64,000 nt of DNA from Naegleria gruberi. Taxonomy: Eukaryota. The stretch lies in the NCBI GenBank assembly GCA_000004985.1, contig GG738853.1; one strand, 5' to 3'. Both the position numbers and the translations under genes were made by a program. Of the stretch, positions 41,781-54,851 are shown one piece after another. The notes beneath the pieces are model-generated. The model saw nothing but the letters and a program-made list of their open reading frames with translations, was not told the DNA's origin and made no database searches. Numbering within the stretch: the stretch's first letter is position 1; each line of letters begins with the position of its first letter.

Positions 41781-42929
41781 ATGTTGCCAACAACGAGCGA
41801 TTTAGATGACTTTTTCAACAGTTTCCCTACACCGGTTCAGCTTGTGGAGAAGGAACGAATTACCTTTTGCAATATTTTAGATGATATTCCTGCAGAGAAG
41901 AAACCAACAAGTCCTCCGAAGAGAGACAAGGACATGGCAACCTTTATTCAGGATATCTATGAAGACATCATCATGAAGACGAATTTGGTTGAGACTGAAG
42001 AATTTGAGAATGATCAAAATAGAGTGTCTTTGAGAAGAAGAAAACTTGCCTTGTCTAAAAAAAGTGGAATTTCACAATATGGAGACATTGATAATTTGGA
42101 AATATTCTTGTTTGGTGTTGATGAGAGTCAAAAAGACAAAGTTTGTAAGATTATTGGAGATACAGATATTAAGAAATCTTCTGGCTCCTTGGACATTAAG
42201 AGTTGCAAGACAATTCATAGTGTGATGAAGAAGTGTGAAAAATGTCGATTGATTTTATGGATTTGTACGAAAGATAACAAGGAAATATTGCAGTTATTGG
42301 TTTGTACAAAGGTTTATCCAGTTACCAATGAAAAGCTTGATCCCTCTGAATCCAGAAAGAAAGTAAAGCGCAATAGTCAACCAGGAGAAGCTTCATCTTC
42401 TGGAATAGACGCAGCCAGTACTGATTTGGTGTCTCAACTTGACCTTGCTTTTGCAAATAATTCAAACACTAATAGCTTGCAATCAGCAAGCACAACCATT
42501 CAAAATAATCCTATTCCACATGAAAATAGTCAACCTCTTTCTCAGCCAAAGGTAGTATATAAATCCCGCCCAGCTGAACTTGCCCAAATGTCTCAAGAAG
42601 ATCTCATAGCCAAAATTATTCGATTGGAAGGCATAATAGAAGACAGAGACAATACCGTTGCTTCTACCCATCAACATTACAATGTTAAAATTTCTGAAAT
42701 GGCTCTTGCTCACTTTAACAATATCCAAGAACTGTTCCAACAGATCAATCGTCTTAATAAGGAAAATTGCGATCTCAAATGTACTTTGAATCCACAAGAT
42801 ACAATTGCACACAAGCAACTTTACATTGAACAATTCGAAGATGCAAAAGAAGTGGTCAATCACCAAGAAAATTTAGATTTGTTTGATGGTGAAACTTCTG
42901 ATGACGTTTATAATAACCTTTTCAACTAG
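41781..42929 (+). CDS. Hypothetical protein (382 aa) with a C-terminal coiled coil.
   Basis: A long ORF with an ATG start. Heptad-like C-terminus (LIAKIIRLEGIIEDRDNTVAS..., INRLNKENCDLKCTL). Confidence 0.45.
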   Translation: MLPTTSDLDDFFNSFPTPVQLVEKERITFCNILDDIPAEKKPTSPPKRDKDMATFIQDIYEDIIMKTNLVETEEFENDQNRVSLRRRKLALSKKSGISQYGDIDNLEIFLFGVDESQKDKVCKIIGDTDIKKSSGSLDIKSCKTIHSVMKKCEKCRLILWICTKDNKEILQLLVCTKVYPVTNEKLDPSESRKKVKRNSQPGEASSSGIDAASTDLVSQLDLAFANNSNTNSLQSASTTIQNNPIPHENSQPLSQPKVVYKSRPAELAQMSQEDLIAKIIRLEGIIEDRDNTVASTHQHYNVKISEMALAHFNNIQELFQQINRLNKENCDLKCTLNPQDTIAHKQLYIEQFEDAKEVVNHQENLDLFDGETSDDVYNNLFN

Positions 42930-43083
42930 TAAAACTTACTTCAAAAATTGAGTTTAATGTGTTATAAATTTATTTCCCTTACCTACTTGTTTCTGGCCAC
43001 ACAGGTAGACATAATCGTTTCTGGTTTTAATGCTACAGAACCCAATCTTTGGCATAATAGAAAATCTCCTAAATAAATTAGAT

Positions 43084-44070
43084 CTATTTATTCTTGATAT
43101 TATTGTAAAAATCTTGTAGTGATTGCCAATACTCAAATGGTAATCCTGTATCGTGCCGTGAAGCATCTCTAACAAAAACACCAACCATATCTCCACGTTC
43201 AATAGTGGGACACATAGCTTCTCTTAAATTAAGTTCACCATTATGAAGTTTTCCACATTTCCAATTTTCTCTCAAATGGGTAAACACTTCATAGGTTAAA
43301 ATGTCAATGCCAAAATAGCAGACAACATCATTTTCATTCTTACATGTTCTCTCCACTTCAAGCATTTGTAACTCCTCCTCTGTTATATAGAGATTGTGAT
43401 TTTCACATTGAATCTTGTTCGGTTTCTCAATAGTAGTCAGAATGGACGTATAAACAACCTCACTCTCCTTCTCCAATACTTGTCCAATCTTTAGCACACC
43501 ATTTGCATACGTATGTTTTTCTGAAATGGTATCCAATGTGACAATAGCCTTATTGAACTTGTTAAAAGCTCTAACAGCATACTGCAAACAACTTTTTCCA
43601 CTTTGAGTCCTCGATGTATAGATATGATCTCCCAACAAGACAATAAATGCCTCATTCTCCTTAATGAATTTATCAGCACAACACAACAATGCATGTCCAA
43701 ATCCAAGTTGTTCCTCCTGTACAATAAAAGTCAGAGTTTTTGAAATTTTCTCAATCATTCTCATCGAATCTTGAATTTCCTTTGCTTTTCCTTCCATAGA
43801 AAAAGCACAAGGCGCATTGAAAAATTCCTCTATAATACTCCTCTGATTTTCCTGCATGACAATACAAACTTGAATATCATCCCATCCGATTTCTGGTTGT
43901 TCTGCAAGTAGCGCCTCCACTGCATGTTCAATAATTATTAATAAAATAGGCTTGCAAAGTTTATCTTTCGGATCAAGGATTGGAAAGAGAGCCTTTGGCA
44001 TGACTTTTGATGCAGGAAACATTCTCGTGCCGTGACCTGCAATAGGTATGATGACTTTGGTGATTGCCAT
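43084..44070 (-). CDS. UTP--glucose-1-phosphate uridylyltransferase of the bacterial GalU type.
   Basis: The N-terminus MAITKVIIPIAGHGTRMFPASKVMPKALFPI matches the GalU/GlmU nucleotidyltransferase signature ([25 protein letters not shown]). LGFGHALLCC also matches. Confidence 0.8.
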   Translation of the reverse strand: MAITKVIIPIAGHGTRMFPASKVMPKALFPILDPKDKLCKPILLIIIEHAVEALLAEQPEIGWDDIQVCIVMQENQRSIIEEFFNAPCAFSMEGKAKEIQDSMRMIEKISKTLTFIVQEEQLGFGHALLCCADKFIKENEAFIVLLGDHIYTSRTQSGKSCLQYAVRAFNKFNKAIVTLDTISEKHTYANGVLKIGQVLEKESEVVYTSILTTIEKPNKIQCENHNLYITEEELQMLEVERTCKNENDVVCYFGIDILTYEVFTHLRENWKCGKLHNGELNLREAMCPTIERGDMVGVFVRDASRHDTGLPFEYWQSLQDFYNNIKNK

Positions 44071-44224
44071 TTTTTTTAAATAATAATTAATTATTAAATT
44101 ATTAATAAATATTAAAGATTACAAATATTTAACAATATTTAAATACTAATTTGTAAACCACGTACTAATATTACACTGTAATATTATTACATTCAACCAT
44201 GTTCCGATTTCTTCTATCAAAAAA

Positions 44225-45157
44225 ATGTCTCTCGATCAAACTTCATCTCCACCACCTCCAGAATCCAACAATTTACTCTCCTGTTGTTCCTTCAATGTTC
44301 ATCACTTCTCCACTGCATACGGAAGGAGTAACCTCACCGAATTATACAAATATTTGCATAAAAACAATTTCGACATTGTCTGCCTGAATGAAGTTTATGA
44401 AGATAGCGAGTATTCTCATCCTCTGAGAGATTTGGTTTATGCATTGAATTCATCATTACCTGAGGAGGTGGAAGTGGCTCGGCCCTATCAATATCGATCT
44501 GGACCCACTAATTATGAATCGAATATTATTCTGAGTAAATATCCAATTCTATTTCAGGAAAAGAAGGATGTTGGAAGAGGTGAAAGATCAGTACTTGGTA
44601 TTAAAATTGATCATCCATTGGTGAGGAATGTATTTGTGACTCATTTGGATCATGTGAGTGAAAATAAGAGAGTGTTACAATTGAAGAGAGTCTTGTCTTT
44701 TATGAAACACTTTATTGATAGGAAATTGGTGGATTATCCAAATGATGAGAATAAGAATTTCATTCTTCTTGGAGATTTTAATTCAATGAGAATGGATGAT
44801 TATACGGATAAGTTTTGGGATTATCTCATTAAGCAGAGAATTCAATATGGTTGGGAAGCTCCAGATACCCAAGTTACCTCCCTATTATTTAATGAACCAA
44901 CAACACCAGAAAGTCACTCCACAGAAGAAGCTGACGAACCTAAACTAAAAATGCCACTCGTGGATTGTTGGAAAGTTTTAAATCCAGATATCATATTTGA
45001 GGGAGAGAAAGGAACTGGTTCTTCAAGACTCGACACTCGAATTGACTATGTCATTAGTAATACTGAATTGCAGCCATATCTCAAACAATCATGGATTGAT
45101 TCCGATGCTTCTGGTATTTCAGATCACCTTCCTGTCGTTGTATTATTTGAGTTTTAA
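44225..45157 (+). CDS. Endonuclease/exonuclease/phosphatase (EEP) family protein.
   Basis: EEP motifs are present: FDIVCLNEV, LLGDFNS, SRIDYVI, SDHLPVVVLF. Confidence 0.7.
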   Translation: MSLDQTSSPPPPESNNLLSCCSFNVHHFSTAYGRSNLTELYKYLHKNNFDIVCLNEVYEDSEYSHPLRDLVYALNSSLPEEVEVARPYQYRSGPTNYESNIILSKYPILFQEKKDVGRGERSVLGIKIDHPLVRNVFVTHLDHVSENKRVLQLKRVLSFMKHFIDRKLVDYPNDENKNFILLGDFNSMRMDDYTDKFWDYLIKQRIQYGWEAPDTQVTSLLFNEPTTPESHSTEEADEPKLKMPLVDCWKVLNPDIIFEGEKGTGSSRLDTRIDYVISNTELQPYLKQSWIDSDASGISDHLPVVVLFEF

Positions 45158-45213
45158 TATAAAATAATTTTGAATCAAAGTAAATTCGATATCAGATACT
45201 GTCAAAAAATTTT

Positions 45214-45294
45214 CGCGGTCTACAGGATTCGAACCTGTGCGGGTCGCCCCAATTGATTTCTAGTCAATCACCTTAACCACTCGGTCAAGACCGC
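45214..45294 (-). tRNA. tRNA-Ser (anticodon AGA), type II tRNA with a long variable arm.
   Basis: The sense strand is GCGGTCTTGACCGAGTGGTTAAGGTGATTGACTAGAAATCAATTGGGGCGACCCGCACAGGTTCGAATCCTGTAGACCGCG. The anticodon loop is CTAGAAA, the T-arm is GGTTCGAATCC, and the discriminator is G. It is nearly identical to metazoan tRNA-Ser(AGA). A T-run follows on its strand (plus 45205..45213). Confidence 0.85.
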
Positions 45295-45539
45295 TTCTCA
45301 TTGCAAGGTATGTATTAAGGGATTCGTTCCGGAATATTCCTGCAACACAAAAATTCAATCAATTTGCCAAATGTGAAAAAACATTTCTCAAAAATAATAC
45401 TCCTCAATCAACAGATTCAGACTGCGGATCGTGATATGAAGACCTGAAAATCATTTTGGATGGGAACAATTTTCCTCTCATTAGAAGTAAACAGTTCTTG
45501 CTTTTTACTGAAGGAATAGCATAAAATCAAAATTTCAGA

Positions 45540-45620
45540 CGCAGACTGCAGGATTCGAACCTACGAAGGTTTCCCCAACAGATTTCAAGTCTGTCGCCTT
45601 AACCACTCGGCCAAGTCTGC
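45540..45620 (-). tRNA. tRNA-Ser (anticodon TGA).
   Basis: The sense strand is GCAGACTTGGCCGAGTGGTTAAGGCGACAGACTTGAAATCTGTTGGGGAAACCTTCGTAGGTTCGAATCCTGCAGTCTGCG. The anticodon loop is CTTGAAA. A T4 run lies downstream on its strand. Confidence 0.85.
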
Positions 45621-45900
45621 TTCATTTCACAGTAATATTAAGGCATTTGTGGAAAAATGTCCTTTCAGCAATTCAAACTCTAACTTTTTTTTGATAGAGG
45701 TCATTTATTGGTCAATCTGAGAAGAGGAAATTAGAATAGCAGAAGAATTGAGAGGTTTTGATGAATATACCTCCATTTCAACCAACTCATTTCATAATTG
45801 TTACCTTTGTGAAGGAAACAAATAAATACCAAAGTGTGCTAAAATAATATGAAATAAAACAATTGTTTCAATCTCAATTTATCTTCAAAGTATTTTGAAA

Positions 45901-46791
45901 ATGCACCTTCCTTTACCATGTGGTTTAAAAATTACCCGAATAGGAAAAAAAATGGCAACAACCGAGAGTACTTTATCATCCACAGAAAAGTGTTGTTGTG
46001 GAGGTGATGATTCATCATCAATGAGCACTTCTTCAACTCCATCAAATAGTATTAGCACAATAGTTGAGCCACACATGGTTGAATACAACTCCCTAACAGG
46101 ATGTAAGGAATTATTTTCTACCAATCCAAAGGTTGTTGTTCCTGGAGCAATCTACATTAAAAACTACATTTCGGAAGAGGAAGAGGAGAGAATTATGAAA
46201 TTAATTGACTCTAAGGCATGGTGCCATGAAATTTGTAGAAGAACACAAATGTATGGCTATACCTATTATCATACAAGACATAATCTTCCAACAATGCAAC
46301 CAGTTAATGAGAGCTCTTCCAATTATCAACATTTGGATTTGAAGGAATTTGATTGGCTTATTGAAAGACTTGTGGAACGGGATGGACTGTACAAGACTGA
46401 TTATGGAAATCCAACACAATGTCTTGTGAATGAATATATTGGAACACAGGGAATTAGTAGTCATGTTGATAATCCTGGTCCGTTTGGAGATATCATCACA
46501 CTGGTTTCACTCAACAAACCAATTTACATGGTTCTGAAATTGGCATCCAATGAGAATATTCAAACTAAGATTCTACTCGAACCAAGAAGTTTATTTGTAA
46601 TGAAAGACGATTCCAGATTCAAATGGAAACATGGAATTACCCATATGAAACAAGTCTACGTCCCAAGCACTGGTGAAACATTAATAAGGGATGAAAATTA
46701 CAGAAGAGTGAGTCTCACCTTTAGATTTATCAAAACAGATGGAACGAAGAAAGTTACAAATGAAGATCCAAACGCTGATGCCTTGTGGTAA
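45901..46791 (+). CDS. AlkB-like Fe(II)/2-oxoglutarate-dependent dioxygenase. The start is ambiguous: ATG at 45901 or 45952.
   Basis: QCLVNEYIGTQGISSHVDNPGPFGDIITLVSLNKPIYM ... RVSLTFRF is the AlkB-homolog double-stranded beta-helix core, with HxD...H and RxS. Confidence 0.7.
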   Translation: MHLPLPCGLKITRIGKKMATTESTLSSTEKCCCGGDDSSSMSTSSTPSNSISTIVEPHMVEYNSLTGCKELFSTNPKVVVPGAIYIKNYISEEEEERIMKLIDSKAWCHEICRRTQMYGYTYYHTRHNLPTMQPVNESSSNYQHLDLKEFDWLIERLVERDGLYKTDYGNPTQCLVNEYIGTQGISSHVDNPGPFGDIITLVSLNKPIYMVLKLASNENIQTKILLEPRSLFVMKDDSRFKWKHGITHMKQVYVPSTGETLIRDENYRRVSLTFRFIKTDGTKKVTNEDPNADALW

Positions 46792-47114
46792 CAATCAATG
46801 ATGTTCGACAATAAACCAAGTTAGTTCATATCTCTGTGACTCTATTTCATTATCTAGGAAGTTGGGAACAATGGTATGATCTCAAATATCAAATGCAGGA
46901 CTTCCATTGAAGAGGATCTTCCTGACAAAAATAATAACTCAACTGTCACTAACAAAATCTTCTGCATTCTTCTTCATCTCAATATTTAACCTTCTTCTAT
47001 TAATTAATTTAATTACCTTTACTACAATTTATTATTACTGTAGTCTTGGACTAATTTGAAATAGCAAAACAACCCTTTCAGTAAAGAGTTAAATAATCCA
47101 GCGACACTTCTGAA

Positions 47115-48788
47115 ATGTCCATTCATGCCTTTATCACTCTCGGTGATTTTCAAATGCATAATTATCCAGAAATAACATCAGTGGATTCATCACCAGCCAA
47201 AAACTGGTCAAATATCGACCACTCTCATCAAGAGTACTACTCCCTTTCGAATATTATTAATTTTAATAGTAACACCTCGGAAACTTTTGCTGATGCTCAT
47301 CATCAAGAATTTAATTACCATTATCATCATCATCAGGAAGAGAATAATTATCAGTGTCGTACCACTCGTGCTATTAATAAGACCCGAATCATTCCCTTCA
47401 CTGATAAGGATGGAAGCATTAACAATAGAAGTAATATAGGTAGCATGGAAGAATTTCCATCATCACCATCATCATCAGCTCATCTACAACCAATCTCCTA
47501 TTTATCATCATCAGAGAGTTGGAATTATTCATCATCAACAATATCAACTGAAGAAAATTGCCTTGATGACTATAGAGTAGAATCACCAACAAGTTATTCT
47601 TACTCAACTAATACCGAAGAAGAAGAAGACTGCAACGATAGTTGTTTTGCATCATCATCAACATCATTCTATTATACTACCAGTAACGAGAGTTTATCTG
47701 CTGTTTCGTCAATAGTTTCTCTTGAAGAATTAAGTAATACAATGCCAATTCAAAAGAATAGTTCAAACTCCAACTTTGTACAAAGTGGTGACAGTTTTGA
47801 GGATTTGTCAATTCTCAACGATTCAGATATCATGGTTAGGGAAGAGGAAGATTGGATGTGTCTTCTTTTTCAAGATGGATTAAGAATGATTGATATTGAA
47901 TCGAGAGAATGGATTTTGGAACAAGTTGACTTTGATCAAGATTGGCAATATGTTGCTTGTTCGAATGTCTATTCAAAGAAAAAGTCAACCAACTCACAAC
48001 TTGAAAGAACTAATGTTTCAATGAATTTGAAGAATTTGAAGGATTATATTGATTGGAAGGAGTGTAAACAAGTCACTCATGTAAATAAGTATTCCAAGTT
48101 TGCCAAAACTGCTGGTAATATTCAATATTACAAACCAGCTCAACCAATTGTGAAAAAGAGCAAACTAAGCAAGGGTGTAATGGACTTTGTTTCGTCTGAG
48201 AATTTTGGAATGGCCACCATGTTGGTTTGTCCTCCTTTAATACTCGCTCATTGGTATGCTGTTTATCAAAAGGAAAGTATAGAATTGAATAGTGCCCAAT
48301 ATTTCGAATCTGAATGGGTATTCAATAATAGAGAACAATGCCTGGAATCAGTTGCCATTCTAAAGAGTTATCCTAAATACATTCAAAAACATATCAACCG
48401 ATACAGTCAAGAAGAATTAGACAAAGTCTTTCCAAAGAAAATTATTTCCAAGAGAATTGCCTACGACTATATTCGAAAGCACGGATTTAACATTGAAAAA
48501 GTTGAATCCAAAACTGGATCTACCACTCCTACTTTCTGTATCAAGTGTGGATCTGAAATTTTAATCGAGTTCATTTCCTCATTCCAATTTTGCCTTAACC
48601 TTATCAAGTTGTTTACTTTCATGTCAGTTTCATTCATTTCAAGAACTATGGCTCTTTCAGTCAATATTCTGTATGAACAATTGAGACGTGTCAATGAAGA
48701 AACTTCACACAATGAGGAACCTTTACAATCATCACCAGATGGAGAAGCCATTCTTTATCATACAAAGTTAATTTATTCATGTGAATAA
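47115..48788 (+). CDS. Hypothetical Ser-rich protein (557 aa).
   Basis: A long ORF with an ATG start. Low-complexity S/N/H-rich N-terminal half and a globular C-terminal half. I recognise no domain. Confidence 0.45.
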   Translation: MSIHAFITLGDFQMHNYPEITSVDSSPAKNWSNIDHSHQEYYSLSNIINFNSNTSETFADAHHQEFNYHYHHHQEENNYQCRTTRAINKTRIIPFTDKDGSINNRSNIGSMEEFPSSPSSSAHLQPISYLSSSESWNYSSSTISTEENCLDDYRVESPTSYSYSTNTEEEEDCNDSCFASSSTSFYYTTSNESLSAVSSIVSLEELSNTMPIQKNSSNSNFVQSGDSFEDLSILNDSDIMVREEEDWMCLLFQDGLRMIDIESREWILEQVDFDQDWQYVACSNVYSKKKSTNSQLERTNVSMNLKNLKDYIDWKECKQVTHVNKYSKFAKTAGNIQYYKPAQPIVKKSKLSKGVMDFVSSENFGMATMLVCPPLILAHWYAVYQKESIELNSAQYFESEWVFNNREQCLESVAILKSYPKYIQKHINRYSQEELDKVFPKKIISKRIAYDYIRKHGFNIEKVESKTGSTTPTFCIKCGSEILIEFISSFQFCLNLIKLFTFMSVSFISRTMALSVNILYEQLRRVNEETSHNEEPLQSSPDGEAILYHTKLIYSCE

Positions 48789-48794
48789 ACATTT

Positions 48795-49349
48795 TCAAAA
48801 TTCCATTCTCAAACTTCTATACTTTCTTACTATTTTTCCAAGTATATATCCAGAGCAAATTCCTAATAGCAAACTAGTCTTGTCTCCACTGATAAATTGT
48901 AATGCAAATGCTGCGAAACCAATTTCAATTTCTGATCTAGTTTTAAGATAGGAGAGATAGCCCAAAATGATATTACCAAAACCGAGCATGTGTCGATGTT
49001 GGAAGATCTTTCTCGATGGATCTGCAAACATCTTTTTGAAAATCAAATCAATGCAGACATTCACCATCAATAGACTGATCGTGATAGCAATCACTGTGAA
49101 AGATGAATATTCTCTTCTTTGGAAGAGCTTTCCTGATAACCAGAGACCATACAAGCAAATAAGAAGATGAACAACATTCCGATGAAACAAGACACTGCTC
49201 AACACCTTAAAATAATCTCCCTTTTCATAAATTTCAAAATAATTGTGTCCCACCTCATGTTCAATCGGTACAAAGGTGAATAGAATGATCAGTACGACGA
49301 TCATAAACCAAACAAAACTCAAATTTTTCATTTTTTGCCTTAATTTCAT
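48795..49349 (-). CDS. Rhomboid-like polytopic membrane protein, probably catalytically inactive (tentative).
   Basis: FHRNVVHLLICLYGLWLSGKLFQ matches the rhomboid TM2 HxxxN...HLxxN...G motif. The GxSG position reads GFGN and the TM6 His is absent. Confidence 0.4.
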   Translation of the reverse strand: MKLRQKMKNLSFVWFMIVVLIILFTFVPIEHEVGHNYFEIYEKGDYFKVLSSVLFHRNVVHLLICLYGLWLSGKLFQRREYSSFTVIAITISLLMVNVCIDLIFKKMFADPSRKIFQHRHMLGFGNIILGYLSYLKTRSEIEIGFAAFALQFISGDKTSLLLGICSGYILGKIVRKYRSLRMEF

Positions 49350-49386
49350 GTACTGGTAAGATGATACAATGATCCTCCAAATATTA

Positions 49387-50196
49387 GAAAAAATATTACC
49401 TCATATTATGATGATCGTTTGTCTGGATTAATTGATGATTGCGAGTATTTAGGGTGGTGGTTTAAAAAACATCTTGATTGTGAGCATACCATCATTGTAG
49501 AAGTATCGGTTCTTGATTTGTTTACTTATATGGAAATCGAATTCGATAAACCATACAATACTCATGAAGAACGTGAGAAGAATGAAACCTCACAAGATTG
49601 TAACGTGTCCATCCACGAATTTAGTGCAGAGGAAATCCAAGAAACGAAAGAATCAAAGATATTTGTGTTACTAGCTCTAAGTGGAGCTGGTTAGAGCCAT
49701 TCTCTATTCTATTTGAATACTAGCAACACAGCATTCACCCGTCCAATTGATTTCGGGTCTATTGAGGACAAACCCGTTCTACTGTCGAATCTTTAGAATA
49801 TATAGTCAACCAAGTTAAAAAGTTAAAACCAAACATAGATACGGATGAAGAAATCCAAAATGAAAACCAGATATTTGTTAATAATATTCAAGCAGTGCTG
49901 CAAGCTCTAAATACAAAAGTCTGTACTCCCAATGGAAAGAACGATTACGTTTTCTAGTGAAAATAAGAGATCAAAATATTTATTCTGGTGAGGAAGGTAA
50001 GGAATTTGAAGATCCCAGCCTGAGAATAGTATTTGACTATACTTTTGAGAATATTCAATTATTTAATCAATATAAGGAAAAAGTCACAACTAGTGATGTT
50101 GTAATTCTATTCAGTAAGGCTAATAATGTTGTTATTAATTACTTCAAAACAACATTTCCATTAATTTATGCAGCACTTAACGAATTCAACCATTAA
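49387..50196 (+). CDS. Hypothetical multi-exon gene; structure unresolved. Coding-like segments: 49387..49690, ~49840..49950 and 49957..50193.
   Basis: Three consecutive plus-strand coding-like segments that lack an ATG or are separated by in-frame stops: ...YYDDRLSGLIDDCEYLGWWFKKHL...SGAG; IDTDEEIQNENQIFVNNIQAVLQALNTKVCTPNGKNDYVF; YSGEEGKEFEDPSLRIVFDYTFENIQLFNQYKE.... I could not resolve the splice sites. Confidence 0.25.
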
Positions 50197-50371
50197 ATAT
50201 ACTACTACTAATTACAAGTGAGAAACTTCATTGCAAAAATAATAAGATTTCCCGCCAAAATTATTATTCCTGTTAAAGAGAATCACGTTTTGCAATTTTG
50301 GGTAATCAAGGCAAGGTTTTTTGTGACGTGTAAATTTCTCACACTTGACATTTGTAGCTTTTCAAAAAACA

Positions 50372-53300
50372 ATGACCCAACAACACTTCAGCAGTATTCA
50401 TCATTTCTTCACTTTGTTTCTTCTGCTCGTGATTATTCTTTCCACTACTACTAATATTACTTTCGTTTCCGGTCAAGCTGTTTACACTAGTTCTGTTATC
50501 GGTGGAACATTGAACGAAACAAGAGCCATCCATGCCAAAATTATTATCTTTGACAATTATGTTGGTCGTCAATTGGCTATCTCTGCCAATGGTGATATGT
50601 ATACAACTTTGGGTAGAGGAACTGTTCGTAAAATTACTTCTGATGGATTATTTGTTCCATCGGTTGCTGGAATTGAGACCAGTTATGGATTTAGTGGTGA
50701 TGGTGGGTTGGCAATTCATGCACAACTGTCATATTCGCTGGGTATATCTGTTAATCCAATGAATGGAGATGTGTACATATGTGACATAAACAATCATAGA
50801 ATTAGAAAGGTGTCGTCTGATGGTGTTATTTCTACCATCGCTGGAACTGGTAGAACAACTTTAAATCCCATCTCTCCAAATACGTACCGTCAAGAAGGAG
50901 GTTACAATGGTGATGGATTGGCAACCGCAACAGATCTTAATTATCCGAAATATGCTCAAGTTGACTCAAAGGGAGATGTCTATTTTGCTGATACATATAA
51001 TGGACTAATTAGAAAGGTTTCCAATGGATATATTACAACAATTGCAGGTTCAAAGCAAAATAGTACAGTTAATACATTTGGTATGGCCCTTAATACTACA
51101 TTTGGAGATTTGAAATCTTTTTCAATGAATTTGAATACTGGAGATTTGATGATTTATTCAAATAAGGGAATATTTAGAGTATTTTCAAACGGTACTGTTG
51201 TAGTAATACGAAACAGTTTGCTTATTTCCAATAATTATTTTGTTGACATTACATTCAAATCTGATACAGAAGTTCTTTTTGGATTGACCAATTCTATTAT
51301 TTCTTACAATTTAGTTACCAACACTTCCACTGTATTGGTAACAGTTATTTATTTATCAGGATTTACAATTTATAGAGATGAGATTTACATTACTCAATCT
51401 TCAAGAAATCTTGGACAAATCAAAAAGTTATCAATTATTGAAGGAAAAGTTAAAATTATACCAATTGCAGGAATTGAAGATGAAATGTTAGATCCATCCT
51501 ATTCCGGTCCTGTTCAAAATGTTTCTCTTCTCAATGCTAATAGAATTACAGTTAGTTCCTCAAATGAAGATGTGTATTTTAGTGAAACATATTTTAACAT
51601 TGTAAGAAGGATATCATTAAGAACAGGAATTATCTCAACAATGACTGGAACTGGTGTCTGTGGTTACATGTCAGATGAAGATGTTGCAACACAAGCTAAA
51701 TTGTGCAATCCAGTTGGATTAGCAATCAATGATTTGAATGAATTATTCATTGCAAATTCTAATTATCCTGCAATTGTCATGGTAAACAACAGTAGAATTG
51801 TTCCAATTTGTGGAAATGGAGAGTATGGTAGGTCTGTAGATGGTATTTTAGCAGTAGATTCCAAGCTGGTCAATCCTACTGAAATTTCCTTAAATCCCTT
51901 AACAGGTGAACTTTATATTTTGGATGATTACAAGGGAGCTGTAAGGAAAATATTCAAAAATGGAACAATTACTAGCGTAATTACAAAAAATTCAGGTTCT
52001 AGTGAATCTATTGACTATATTGCAGTCAACCCAAAGAGTGGTGAATTTTATTTTCTTTCCAATTCAATACTTTACAAAATGACAACCAAAGGAAGAATAG
52101 CTGTTGCAGGATCAGGTACATCATATGAAGATGGTGTTTTGGCAAAGAATTCTAAATTCAATTCTCCAAAATCAATCGCTTTCAATCCAGTAACGAATGA
52201 CATTCTAGTTACAAGTGACAATTCTATTCGAATCATATTAAGCAATGGAACAATTACAACTTTGAAATATACCAATACTGATCCATTTCCACTTTCTTCT
52301 TTAGAAGGTATTGCTGTTAGCTCAAGTGGTGATATCTATATAGTAGATGCAGGGAATTATGCTATTAGAAAGTTGACACAATGTCCAAATGGATGTTTTT
52401 ATGGACAGTGCAAAACTCCAAATATTTGCACTTGTGATAATGATCATTATGGAATTGATTGTTCGAATAGAATTGATTGGGAATCAAGAACTGCTGTCAT
52501 TATTGCACCAATTCTAGTTATATTACTTATGGGTATTATGATTATTGTAATTGTATTAATTATTTTGATTTATTATTTTAGAAAATCTATTTCAGTTAAA
52601 ATCCAACAAGTTTATGATAATTTAAAACCAAAACAAACAAATATTGAATTGAATCAATCATTGTTGGATTATCAACAACCACAATTGTTTAAAACTAATA
52701 ACATTTCAATAGAGGAAGGATTAATGAATGAAAATGATGATAGTGACGATCCTGTTAATAGATATGAGATTTTGGAAAGAATAGGAAGAGGAGGATTTGG
52801 TTCTGGTAAGTTTATTGGAAATATTTTTATTCGAATCTTTTCCTTATTAGTTTATAAAGTTAAATATATTCAAGATGGTTCGATTAGAGCCCTTAAAACA
52901 CTCAAATATGCTAACATTGAAGAGTTGAATTTAGCAATGAAAGAAGGAACCCAACTAATGAATTTATCACATCCAACCATTTTACATGTGAATGACATTT
53001 TTGTGGGTAAAAATAATTTGATATACATTGATATGGAGTATTATGAACAGGGAGATTTATGTTCTTTAATTTCAAAATCAAATGAACCTTGTAAGGAAGC
53101 AATCATTCTTCAAATTATGAATCAAATTTGTTCAGCTCTTCATTATGTTCACACTCAATTGAAATCCATTCACAGAGATGTTAAACCAAATAATATATTT
53201 ATCAAATCAGTCCATGATAATTCAATTCAGGTTATTTTAGCTGATTTTGGAATGGCTAAACAAAATCAAGGATCTTCAAATAACTCATATGCAGGCACTC

Positions 53301-53608
53301 CATTATTTATGAGTCCTGAACTTGCAATGGGATCTAAATATTCATTTAATACTGATATATTTTCATTAGGAGTAACTATTTATCAAATAATGACCAAGGA
53401 TAGTTCTATTTCTGTTGGTCAATTGCACCTTTGTAAAGATTCTACAAGTGTTAAGGAGATTCTAAGAAATAATATGAGTCAAAGTGGAATGTATTCGGAT
53501 AATTTGATTGAAATTGTAATTATGACTTTAGAGAAAGATCCTCAAAATAGAATTGACTCTTCTCAATTATTGGAAAAGATAAAGATGATGGAATCAAGTC
53601 ACCAATAA
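50372..53608 (+). CDS. Receptor-like Ser/Thr kinase with an NHL-repeat beta-propeller plus EGF ectodomain; exons 50372..52805 and 52851..53608, with a 45-nt intron.
   Basis: It has a signal peptide (LFLLLVIILSTTTNITFVSG). NHL-type repeats recur (YICDINNHRIRKVSSDGVISTIAGTG, YFADTYNGLIRKV, YIVDAGNYAIRKL). An EGF-like module follows (CPNGCFYGQCKTPNICTCDNDHYGIDC), then a TM helix (VIIAPILVILLMGIMIIVIVLIILIYYF). The kinase reads GRGGFGS|VYKVKY, with the GTAAGT...TTAG intron inside the G-loop. It carries HRDVKPNNIF, DFGMAK, GTPLFMSPE and NTDIFSLGVTIYQIM, which are NEK-like motifs. Confidence 0.8.
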   Translation: MTQQHFSSIHHFFTLFLLLVIILSTTTNITFVSGQAVYTSSVIGGTLNETRAIHAKIIIFDNYVGRQLAISANGDMYTTLGRGTVRKITSDGLFVPSVAGIETSYGFSGDGGLAIHAQLSYSLGISVNPMNGDVYICDINNHRIRKVSSDGVISTIAGTGRTTLNPISPNTYRQEGGYNGDGLATATDLNYPKYAQVDSKGDVYFADTYNGLIRKVSNGYITTIAGSKQNSTVNTFGMALNTTFGDLKSFSMNLNTGDLMIYSNKGIFRVFSNGTVVVIRNSLLISNNYFVDITFKSDTEVLFGLTNSIISYNLVTNTSTVLVTVIYLSGFTIYRDEIYITQSSRNLGQIKKLSIIEGKVKIIPIAGIEDEMLDPSYSGPVQNVSLLNANRITVSSSNEDVYFSETYFNIVRRISLRTGIISTMTGTGVCGYMSDEDVATQAKLCNPVGLAINDLNELFIANSNYPAIVMVNNSRIVPICGNGEYGRSVDGILAVDSKLVNPTEISLNPLTGELYILDDYKGAVRKIFKNGTITSVITKNSGSSESIDYIAVNPKSGEFYFLSNSILYKMTTKGRIAVAGSGTSYEDGVLAKNSKFNSPKSIAFNPVTNDILVTSDNSIRIILSNGTITTLKYTNTDPFPLSSLEGIAVSSSGDIYIVDAGNYAIRKLTQCPNGCFYGQCKTPNICTCDNDHYGIDCSNRIDWESRTAVIIAPILVILLMGIMIIVIVLIILIYYFRKSISVKIQQVYDNLKPKQTNIELNQSLLDYQQPQLFKTNNISIEEGLMNENDDSDDPVNRYEILERIGRGGFGSGKFIGNIFIRIFSLLVYKVKYIQDGSIRALKTLKYANIEELNLAMKEGTQLMNLSHPTILHVNDIFVGKNNLIYIDMEYYEQGDLCSLISKSNEPCKEAIILQIMNQICSALHYVHTQLKSIHRDVKPNNIFIKSVHDNSIQVILADFGMAKQNQGSSNNSYAGTPLFMSPELAMGSKYSFNTDIFSLGVTIYQIMTKDSSISVGQLHLCKDSTSVKEILRNNMSQSGMYSDNLIEIVIMTLEKDPQNRIDSSQLLEKIKMMESSHQ

Positions 53609-53959: not shown

Positions 53960-54851
53960 ATGGTGCGACATGCAGTTGGTGTTGGAATGAGTGTCATGAT
54001 AGTTCTCTTGTTGGTTATTGTTGTGATGATCAATGTGATGGTCGAGGCTCAGAATATTGATCACTTGTTTCCGTTGATTGAATCATTGAAGGAAGAAGAT
54101 GAATTAGACTTGAGAGGAATGAAATACAACGAAACACAAGTAAGTATAGAGTTGATTGTGTTGGATAATTGAACTCGCTCCAATAATAATGATTACTATT
54201 GAACGATATTGATGATAATAGCCTATTGTTAAAAATCCAAGTGAATTTACTGGATATCGTGTTGGTTTGATTGCTTCTCATTGTTTTGAAGAATGCGAAT
54301 TGACCTTCCCTTATCTCTATTTTGCTGCTCGTAATGCCACATTGGATGTTATTGGACCATGGTGGGTAAAGGATGGAAAAATTGCTAGTTGTGAATTTGT
54401 TAGAGTAACCAGATATGCCAAGAGGAGCTTTGATTTCAAACAAGCTCTCTCTCAAAAGTATGACGCCTTGATTGTGGTGGGTGGAATATGGTCTTCAACT
54501 GTTGTCAGAAATGATGGAGATGCTATGGAATTGATTAGACAACAAGCTGCTAGTGGAAGATTATTGGCTACTGTTTGTTCTGGATCTACAGTTTTGATTA
54601 ATGCAAAATTGATTAAACCTGGAATGCAATTGACTGGTAGTCCTTCCATTGCTATTGATTTGGAAAATGCAGGTGCCAAGTATTTGGATGTTCCAGTGGT
54701 GAAAAGTACTACCAATTTAATTACTGGTCGTTCTCCAGGTGGTTTGGATAATTTACTTTTCACTGAGGAAATTGCCAAGCATTTGAAAGCTCAAAAGAAA
54801 TTGAACAAATTGCTCAAACAATTTAACAAGCTCTTGAATAAGCAAAATTAA
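53960..54851 (+). CDS. DJ-1/PfpI (ThiJ) family protein with an N-terminal signal anchor; exons 53960..54139 and 54222..54851.
   Basis: Exon 1 reads MVRHAVGVGMSVMIVLLLVIVVMINVMVEAQN...KYNETQ, then GTAAGT; the intron is 82 nt and ends ...AATAG. Exon 2 reads PIVKNPSEFTGYRVGLIASHCFEE...YDALIVVGG...LLATVCSGSTVL, with the nucleophile Cys in the CSGS elbow. Confidence 0.7.

Follow-up and report, generated by a model that had tools for sequence, protein, structure and literature searches.

The DNA analysed here, a window of 64,000 nucleotides (nt) from Naegleria gruberi (contig GG738853.1), contains at positions 50372-53608 of the plus strand a single gene of N. gruberi NEG-M. Its open reading frame (ORF) starts with an ATG at 50372, ends with a TAA at 53606-53608 and is open throughout, also across the intron proposed below. 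The unspliced translation of 1078 amino acids (aa) is an exact match to a deposited protein named "serine/threonine kinase" (EFC47743.1, XP_002680487.1, UniProt D2V611), the neighbouring deposited models of which are EFC47739-47742. The product of this gene is probably a type I single-pass receptor-like serine/threonine (Ser/Thr) kinase of a vahlkampfiid-specific, NEK-leaning family, made after removal of a 45-nt intron. The following features were recognised in the gene and its predicted protein.

50372..52805, + strand: exon 1 (aa 1-811 plus the first base of codon 812; ATG, continuous ORF)
52806..52850, + strand: proposed intron, 45 nt, phase 1 (GTAAGT...TTAG; in frame, stop-free, within the codons of the G-loop, the ATP-binding loop)
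52851..53608, + strand: exon 2 with the TAA stop (53606-53608), from the ORF
50372..50473, + strand: predicted signal peptide (aa 1-34; h-region FFTLFLLLVIIL; cleavage at about VSG-QA; from hydropathy)
50573..51469, + strand: predicted NHL beta-propeller 1 (aa ~68-366, blades 1-6; 2-3 canonical, 4-6 degenerate)
51503..52375, + strand: predicted NHL beta-propeller 2 (aa ~378-668, blades 7-12; from Pfam, AlphaFold2 and Foldseek)
52379..52465, + strand: EGF-like six-Cys module (aa 670-698, C-x3-C-x4-C-x5-C-x-C-x8-C)
52493..52579, + strand: single transmembrane (TM) helix (aa 708-736; Kyte-Doolittle 19-mer mean up to 3.74)
52580..52762, + strand: juxtamembrane linker (aa 737-797; Asn/Gln/acidic-rich)
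52763..53575, + strand: protein kinase domain (aa 798-1053 of the spliced protein; the DNA span includes the intron)
53171..53194, + strand: catalytic loop HRDVKPNN, Ser/Thr type, RD kinase (aa 919-926)
53243..53320, + strand: activation segment from DFG to SPE (aa 943-968; includes Ser957)

Gene model and domain architecture

Removal of 52806-52850 joins GRGGFGS to VYKV and yields a canonical G-loop, GRGGFGSVYKV. The edges of the removed segment are exactly GT and AG, with a pyrimidine-rich stretch upstream of the AG. A contiguous motif of the form IGxGxFG(S/A)V[YF][KR] was present in all homologues in which the G-loop could be located (24/24), and the Pfam Pkinase profile aligned with the spliced protein from profile position 1 (166.3 bits) vs position 15 for the deposited unspliced protein (143.4 bits). 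The intron, which had been proposed in an earlier reading made from the DNA sequence without database searches (here called the sequence-only reading), is very likely real. Since it is in frame and stop-free, it could not be detected as a break in the ORF. Splicing gives a product of 1063 aa; this form had no entry in the protein collection searched, and the deposited XP_002680487.1 thus holds 15 extra residues (GKFIGNIFIRIFSLL) in its ATP-binding loop. An apparent 82-nt GTAAGT...AG intron is also present in the adjacent DJ-1/PfpI gene. At least two N. fowleri paralogues (P0390 and P0243) lack an intron at this place, their genomic ORFs reading through an intact G-loop.

The sequence-only reading had described one gene in which a signal peptide, NHL repeats, an EGF-like module, a TM helix and a kinase are fused, and each element that it listed was found where it had been placed. 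The continuous ORF, together with the same architecture in many paralogues, bears out the fusion. At the N-terminus a hydrophobic stretch (aa 12-33) is followed by VSG-QA, which by hydropathy fits the signal peptide claimed; the paralogues P0056, P0251, P0391 and P0249 have equivalent hydrophobic N-termini. A cleavable signal peptide of this kind would send the N-terminal part of the protein outside the cell.

In Pfam searches with the spliced protein the region behind the leader matched TEN_NHL (1.3e-21) and NHL (1.5e-16). At least six NHL repeats had been counted before; there are in fact 12 blades, six with the canonical YxxDxxNxxIRK motif and six degenerate. A structural model of aa 35-705 was computed with AlphaFold2 from a 30-sequence alignment (mean predicted local distance difference test (pLDDT) value 79, predicted template modelling score (pTM) 0.58), and DSSP assigned to it 12 four-stranded blades in succession. 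With Foldseek, the whole model aligned with the tandem-propeller ectodomains of LRP6 and half of it with the NHL domain of SOQ1 (template modelling score 0.71); the two halves are also alike internally (aa 42-276 vs 429-628, 27% identity). Four-stranded blades, the NHL motif and a match to a solved NHL structure, the marks of the six-bladed NHL beta-propeller fold, are thus all present. From the 12 blades, the Foldseek matches and the internal similarity, the fold of the ectodomain is most likely two tandem six-bladed NHL propellers. Bacterial proteins matching the ectodomain with E-values near 1e-168 were considered as orthologues and rejected; these values are sums of 8-25 partial repeat matches per protein, most of about two blades, and are therefore no sign of orthology.

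Behind the second propeller, six Cys residues (671/675/680/686/688/697) stand in EGF spacing, in agreement with the EGF-like module claimed, which would be small and stabilised by disulphides. The best Pfam match of this module was sub-threshold in the window protein (EGF_PEAR1L, E=0.05, aa 671-699), and significant EGF_2 or EGF_Teneurin matches were obtained at the same position in paralogues; in the AlphaFold2 model it has low pLDDT. The extracellular part comprises ~640 aa with nine N-x-S/T sequons, all of them N-terminal to the TM helix.

The topology check that the sequence-only reading had suggested gave, by hydropathy, an N-terminal leader and one strong TM helix (aa 708-736), the latter followed directly by the basic sequence YYFRKSISVK. 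No Pfam domain matched the linker (aa 737-797). Leader, ectodomain, one TM helix and intact kinase are all present in the sequence, which fits a type I topology with the propellers and the EGF-like module outside and the kinase in the cytosol.

The kinase domain matched Pkinase (PF00069; 1.1e-48, 166 bits) 51 bits better than PK_Tyr_Ser-Thr (PF07714; 3.6e-33, 115 bits). The G-loop (805-812), K827, E843, HRD (919-921), N926, DFG (943-945) and SPE (966-968) are all in place, and the three motifs quoted in the sequence-only reading were found (HRDVKPNN at 919-926, GTPLFMSPE at 960-968, and NTDIFSLGVTIYQIM). Within the activation segment Ser957 is invariant in the family (S163 of alignment A1) and aligned with Thr175 of NEK2. 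The intact catalytic elements fit an active RD Ser/Thr kinase.

Paralogues and affinity of the kinase

A search with the kinase domain retrieved closely related proteins of N. gruberi and N. fowleri as a compact group (50-57% identity), below which the scores fell to ~105 bits, at the level of bacterial PASTA kinases, a NEK and PKR. A family profile (A1) was built from seven sequences, the window kinase included, and compared by HMMER with 1.84 billion representatives; the matches listed are the 150 best by summed score, and single-domain proteins below ~200 bits lie outside them. Among these matches at least 13 proteins (clusters or sampled members) scored at least 355 bits for a single domain, and lower tiers were present at 237-275, 200-212 and 170-185 bits; no match among the 150 fell at ~130-170 bits. 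All 20 proteins of at least 177 bits that were looked up came from N. gruberi, N. fowleri, N. lovaniensis or Willaertia magna. By sequence, then, this kinase family is found, among the matches listed, only in Naegleria and Willaertia (Vahlkampfiidae), and in neighbour-joining (NJ) analysis their kinases formed a Naegleria/Willaertia-only clade with 85% bootstrap support.

The core members of the family consist of NHL repeats, a teneurin-type EGF module, a TM helix and a C-terminal kinase. GPS-domain receptors are among the second-tier members, and the outer part of the clade consists of cytosolic proteins in which a kinase is joined to TPR or ankyrin repeats, as well as of multi-kinase proteins. 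Nearly every full-length core paralogue has its TM helix 70-100 aa upstream of the kinase. The window protein shares this spacing as well as the NHL/EGF ectodomain and a kinase score of at least 355 bits (438 bits on A1, of which it is itself a member; 47-54% identity to core members). The search for paralogous NHL-kinase genes, also suggested in the sequence-only reading, was productive: the order NHL, EGF, TM, kinase is shared by at least 10 paralogues in N. gruberi, N. fowleri and N. lovaniensis. On the sequence evidence, the gene at 50372-53608 is one member of a vahlkampfiid-specific kinase expansion, mostly receptor-like. The fusion had been called unexpected, and this element of the claim is weakened, since receptor kinases of this type are expanded vahlkampfiid-wide and were already in the public protein sets.

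The leader-NHL-EGF-TM-kinase architecture is shared in N. gruberi by D2VUG2 (XP_002672252), D2VNU7 (XP_002674300), P0005 and P0056, in N. fowleri by FDP41_002843 and FDP41_013523, and in N. lovaniensis by C9374_012036 and C9374_002334. Their kinase domains scored 355-460 bits on the family profile. The ectodomains are of variable length and only ~30% identical (proteins of 650-2270 aa); P0005 is 33% identical to the window protein over 93% of the length. No tandem paralogue was found in the window. One N. gruberi protein (P0429; D2VGC0, XP_002676784; 2167 aa) has, besides NHL repeats, a TM helix and numerous EGF modules of the teneurin type, a kinase-like domain in which the G-loop motif and HRD are both lost, and is probably a pseudokinase receptor of the same family. 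Three N. gruberi proteins of 281-290 aa (P0121, P0122 and P0123) are the closest relatives of the kinase; they are annotated as kinase-only and start ~20 residues before the G-loop, and may be truncated models of further receptor kinases. Another N. gruberi protein (P0064, 819 aa) has NHL repeats and PF00538 (linker histone H1/H5) in its precomputed Pfam list, which is an odd pairing.

The sequence-only reading had also described the kinase as NEK-like. NEK is the nearest named relative by every sequence measure applied, although by small margins, and the domain is not demonstrably a NEK. In searches of PDB with the single domain, NEK2 (106 bits), NEK1 (102 bits) and NEK7 (99 bits) ranked above MST/STE20 kinases (93 bits), and PKR was also among the matches. 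With the family profile NEK2 was again first (135.5 bits), and the ranking below it was nearly flat over NEK, STE20, ULK and CDPK kinases (MST3 131.3, SLK 129.7, NEK1 128.9, NEK7 126.4, ULK3 126.2, CDPK 125.7). Hidden Markov models (HMMs) of kinase groups, built ad hoc, ranked the window kinase as NEK 186, bacterial 152, CAMK/ULK/PLK 147, STE20 139, PKR 88 and TKL 39 bits, and the NEK model was the best for 21 of the 26 clade members. The NJ tree was computed from 247 columns of 45 sequences, 19 of them references, with 300 bootstraps and with N. gruberi's own NEKs left out. The reference kinases were compared with PDB chains: NEK7 and STK4 were 100% identical residue by residue, and IRAK4, PknB, MARK2, ULK1, PLK1 and PAK1 gave full-length ungapped matches at ~2.2 bits per residue. 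The sister group of the Naegleria/Willaertia clade was NEK alone in 81 of the 300 replicates (27%), PKR in 43 (14%), NEK+PKR in 25 (8%) and bacteria in 15 (5%).

It is possible, although on balance doubtful, that the kinase is a fast-evolving true NEK recruited as the output module of a receptor, i.e., a membrane-anchored NEK. The same doubt applies to its extension to the whole clade, by which dozens of NHL/EGF, GPS and other receptors, together with the TPR, ankyrin and multi-kinase cytosolic forms, might be a divergent NEK offshoot. The PDB rankings, the group model (186 vs 152 bits for the next group) and the position of NEK as commonest sister (35% when NEK+PKR is included) speak for it, as do HRDVKPNNIFI and GTPLFMSPE, motifs also found in NEK2, and the alignment of Ser957 with Thr175. 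Motifs of the types HRDxKxxNIF and GTPxxMSPE, however, occur in PKR as well and are therefore not diagnostic of NEK. Human NEK2 as query scored 204 bits with NEK1 and 167 with NEK7, but also 129 with MARK2, 127 with PLK2, 121 with ULK3 and 117 with Aurora A; the 106 bits between the window kinase and NEK2 (30-32% identity to NEK2 and NEK7) are thus below the similarity of NEK2 to non-NEK kinases (117-129 bits) and far below that between NEKs. On the NEK model non-NEK controls reached 168-180 bits, whereas true NEKs that had been left out reached 208-261 bits with margins of at least 43 bits. In the NJ tree the window clade lay outside the NEK clade (72%) and was never nested in it. An autoinhibitory "Tyr-down" residue (NEK2 Tyr70, NEK7 Tyr97) is typical of many NEKs; the residue aligned with it here is Val (HPTILHVND), invariant in the family alignment. 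NEKs are soluble mitotic or ciliary kinases in which the catalytic domain comes first and the regulatory regions, coiled-coil or other, lie C-terminal to it, whereas the window kinase stands at the extreme C-terminus, behind signal peptide, ectodomain and TM helix. If the clade had originated from NEK, its basal cytosolic members would be expected to be more NEK-like, but P0382, which is such a member, had no NEK preference in PDB (best matches of 77-96 bits: an EGFR entry in two stretches, bacterial Stk, MEKK2, CDPK and NEK1). On the other hand, excavates have expanded Nek families that are "remarkably divergent", those of Giardia being ankyrin-rich (PMC3218828), and the outer member P0275 has ankyrin repeats.

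Other readings of the locus are less probable. That the deposited single-exon model is right, so that 15 hydrophobic residues in the G-loop make the protein an impaired pseudokinase or an adhesion receptor, is unlikely. It is the version in GenBank and UniProt, the proposed intron is in frame and lacks a stop codon, and at least one paralogue, P0429, resembles a pseudokinase; a stop-free stretch of 15 codons, however, has a chance of ~0.3 at the local base composition (a rough estimate), all other catalytic residues are conserved, unlike in a dead kinase, and excision at the exact GT/AG edges restores the G-loop of the homologues and adds 23 bits and 14 N-terminal profile positions. In a variant of this reading, regulated retention of the stop-free, in-frame intron could yield a kinase-dead isoform. 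Horizontal transfer of a bacterial PknD-like Hanks kinase with an NHL sensor is very improbable. The top-scoring matches of the ectodomain were bacterial or metagenomic NHL proteins, kinase and NHL repeats are combined in the bacterial proteins P0062, P0068, P0072, P0076, P0099 and P0101, and bacterial PASTA kinases matched the kinase domain at ~105 bits, level with NEK2. In PknD, however, the kinase is N-terminal, the opposite of the order seen here, with propellers N-terminal and kinase C-terminal. Moreover, the bacterial kinases formed a clade of their own (93%), which was placed as sister of the Naegleria clade in no more than 5% of the bootstraps, and both the intron, of spliceosomal type, and the EGF module, of eukaryotic type, speak against a bacterial source. 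It is extremely improbable that the NHL region is a separate secreted protein next to a separate kinase gene, or that the kinase belongs to TKL or RLK/Pelle, outcomes that the sequence-only reading had named as refuting it. All that speaks for the latter is that receptor kinases of the TKL group are generally frequent in plants and in certain protists (PMC10463195); no TKL kinase was among the best 60 PDB matches, IRAK4 was with 20.5% identity the joint lowest of the references, and the low TKL model score and the Pfam scores given above point the same way. Between the modules there is no stop or second start, and the fusion recurs in the paralogues of three Naegleria species.

Several points weigh against the interpretation of the gene as a spliced, NEK-leaning receptor kinase. 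The support for the intron comes from sequence, and 45 nt is short. With 27 occurrences vs 23 expected, the hexamer GTAAGT shows no enrichment in the window, and splice-site enrichment was therefore left out as evidence. The signal peptide and the topology rest on hydropathy, on the distribution of Cys residues and sequons, and on analogy, and the two-propeller arrangement on a model with pTM 0.58 from a shallow alignment. The tree is an NJ tree with only 19 references in which N. gruberi's own NEKs are absent. Dimerisation and autophosphorylation, considered below, are drawn by analogy with other receptor kinases and PknD (PMC3322341).

Neighbouring genes in the window

Downstream of the receptor kinase gene, 53961-54851 (+) encodes a hydrophobic leader (MVRHAVGVGMSVMIVLLLVIVVMINVMVEA) followed by a DJ-1/PfpI domain (Pfam 2.3e-24); its apparent 82-nt intron, at 54140-54221, was located by eye. 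A DJ-1/PfpI protein that is secreted or anchored in a membrane would be somewhat out of the ordinary. The gene at 43084-44070 (-) encodes a UTP-glucose-1-phosphate uridylyltransferase (UGPase) of the NTP_transferase (PF00483) type, labelled GtaB in the sources and 100% identical to an N. gruberi protein. Its relatives were found in Naegleria (67%), Willaertia (56%) and Acrasis (45%), followed by environmental metagenome sequences (44-45%), and it may be an old bacterial acquisition in Heterolobosea. The 1.6 kb between EFC47742 and EFC47743 (48789-50371, +) contain only short ORFs, e.g., 49419-49694 and 49957-50196, none with a Pfam match; the locus is otherwise compact, and either a multi-exon gene missed by the annotation or a long intergenic spacer could lie here.

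A scaffold of 9,198 bp of N. gruberi (EFC35740-EFC35745) duplicates approximately positions 41781-51200 of the window, covering the genes 41781-42929, 43084-44070 and 47115-48788 and the start of 50372-53608. Two of its products, the UGPase and a partial "predicted protein" of 277 aa, show 100% identity to the window genes, which suggests redundancy in the assembly or an allelic scaffold of identical sequence. The 90% cluster that holds XP_002680487.1 is represented by this 277-aa partial sequence.

Possible receptor signalling in Naegleria

By analogy with known receptor kinases, the protein might work as follows. A ligand or a surface would bind the faces of the propellers, and binding would cluster or dimerise the receptors, whereupon the RD kinase could trans-autophosphorylate at the invariant Ser957 and, once activated, phosphorylate cytosolic substrates. 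Such a receptor may serve a bacterivorous amoeba as a sensor of the environment, prey, matrix or cell contact.

The combination of six-bladed propeller and EGF recalls the ectodomains of teneurins and of the LDL-receptor family, a likeness at the domain level only. Teneurins have a type II orientation and a YD shell, the blades of LRPs are of the YWTD type, and neither has a kinase. PknD of Mycobacterium tuberculosis has its kinase inside the cell and its sensor domain outside (PMC3322341), and the NHL propeller of such a sensor matches the fold of the window ectodomain. However, PknD has one propeller and no EGF module, whereas the window protein has, as predicted, two propellers and EGF, and the PknD kinase falls into the separate bacterial clade, outside of which the window kinase lies. 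Receptor Ser/Thr kinases of protists and plants combine a conserved kinase with a lineage-specific ectodomain and are expanded within one lineage (PMC10463195). The transmembrane kinases (TMKs) of Entamoeba and oomycetes and plant RLK/Pelle are single-pass and lineage-expanded like the window family; its kinase clade, however, is not TKL/Pelle, and its NHL and EGF ectodomain is unlike those of the Entamoeba, oomycete and plant receptors. The survey of protist TMKs was made without Naegleria (PMC10463195).

The proteins themselves are already known from public databases with Pfam annotations, and the system is not of a new kind, lineage-specific receptor kinases made by domain shuffling being a known theme (PMC10463195). 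In the literature searched there was no account of Naegleria NHL kinases or of a classification of the Naegleria kinome; new with respect to that literature are the vahlkampfiid family, its orphan kinase clade with a leaning towards NEK, and the intron missed in the deposited protein. The practical gain, a modest one, is a corrected model of XP_002680487.1, in which a missed 45-nt intron disrupts the ATP-binding loop of the deposited protein, and a family delimited by a profile and a list of its members, which could serve for its classification in the Naegleria kinome.

If the clade were indeed derived from NEK, the amoeboflagellate lineage would have made an ancestral mitotic or ciliary NIMA-type catalytic domain the output module of its surface receptors, and receptor kinase signalling would have been independently invented from a family not otherwise known as membrane-tethered. 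As a predicted receptor family of the vahlkampfiids, the kinases described here would mean that heterolobosean amoebae have evolved single-pass receptor Ser/Thr kinases in a large family of their own, independent of the animal RTK/STKR, plant RLK/Pelle, Entamoeba and oomycete families, with ectodomains that resemble, in their propeller and EGF, those of teneurin/LRP and call to mind the sensor of bacterial PknD. The family is also present in the pathogen N. fowleri, in which surface sensors and adhesins have practical interest.

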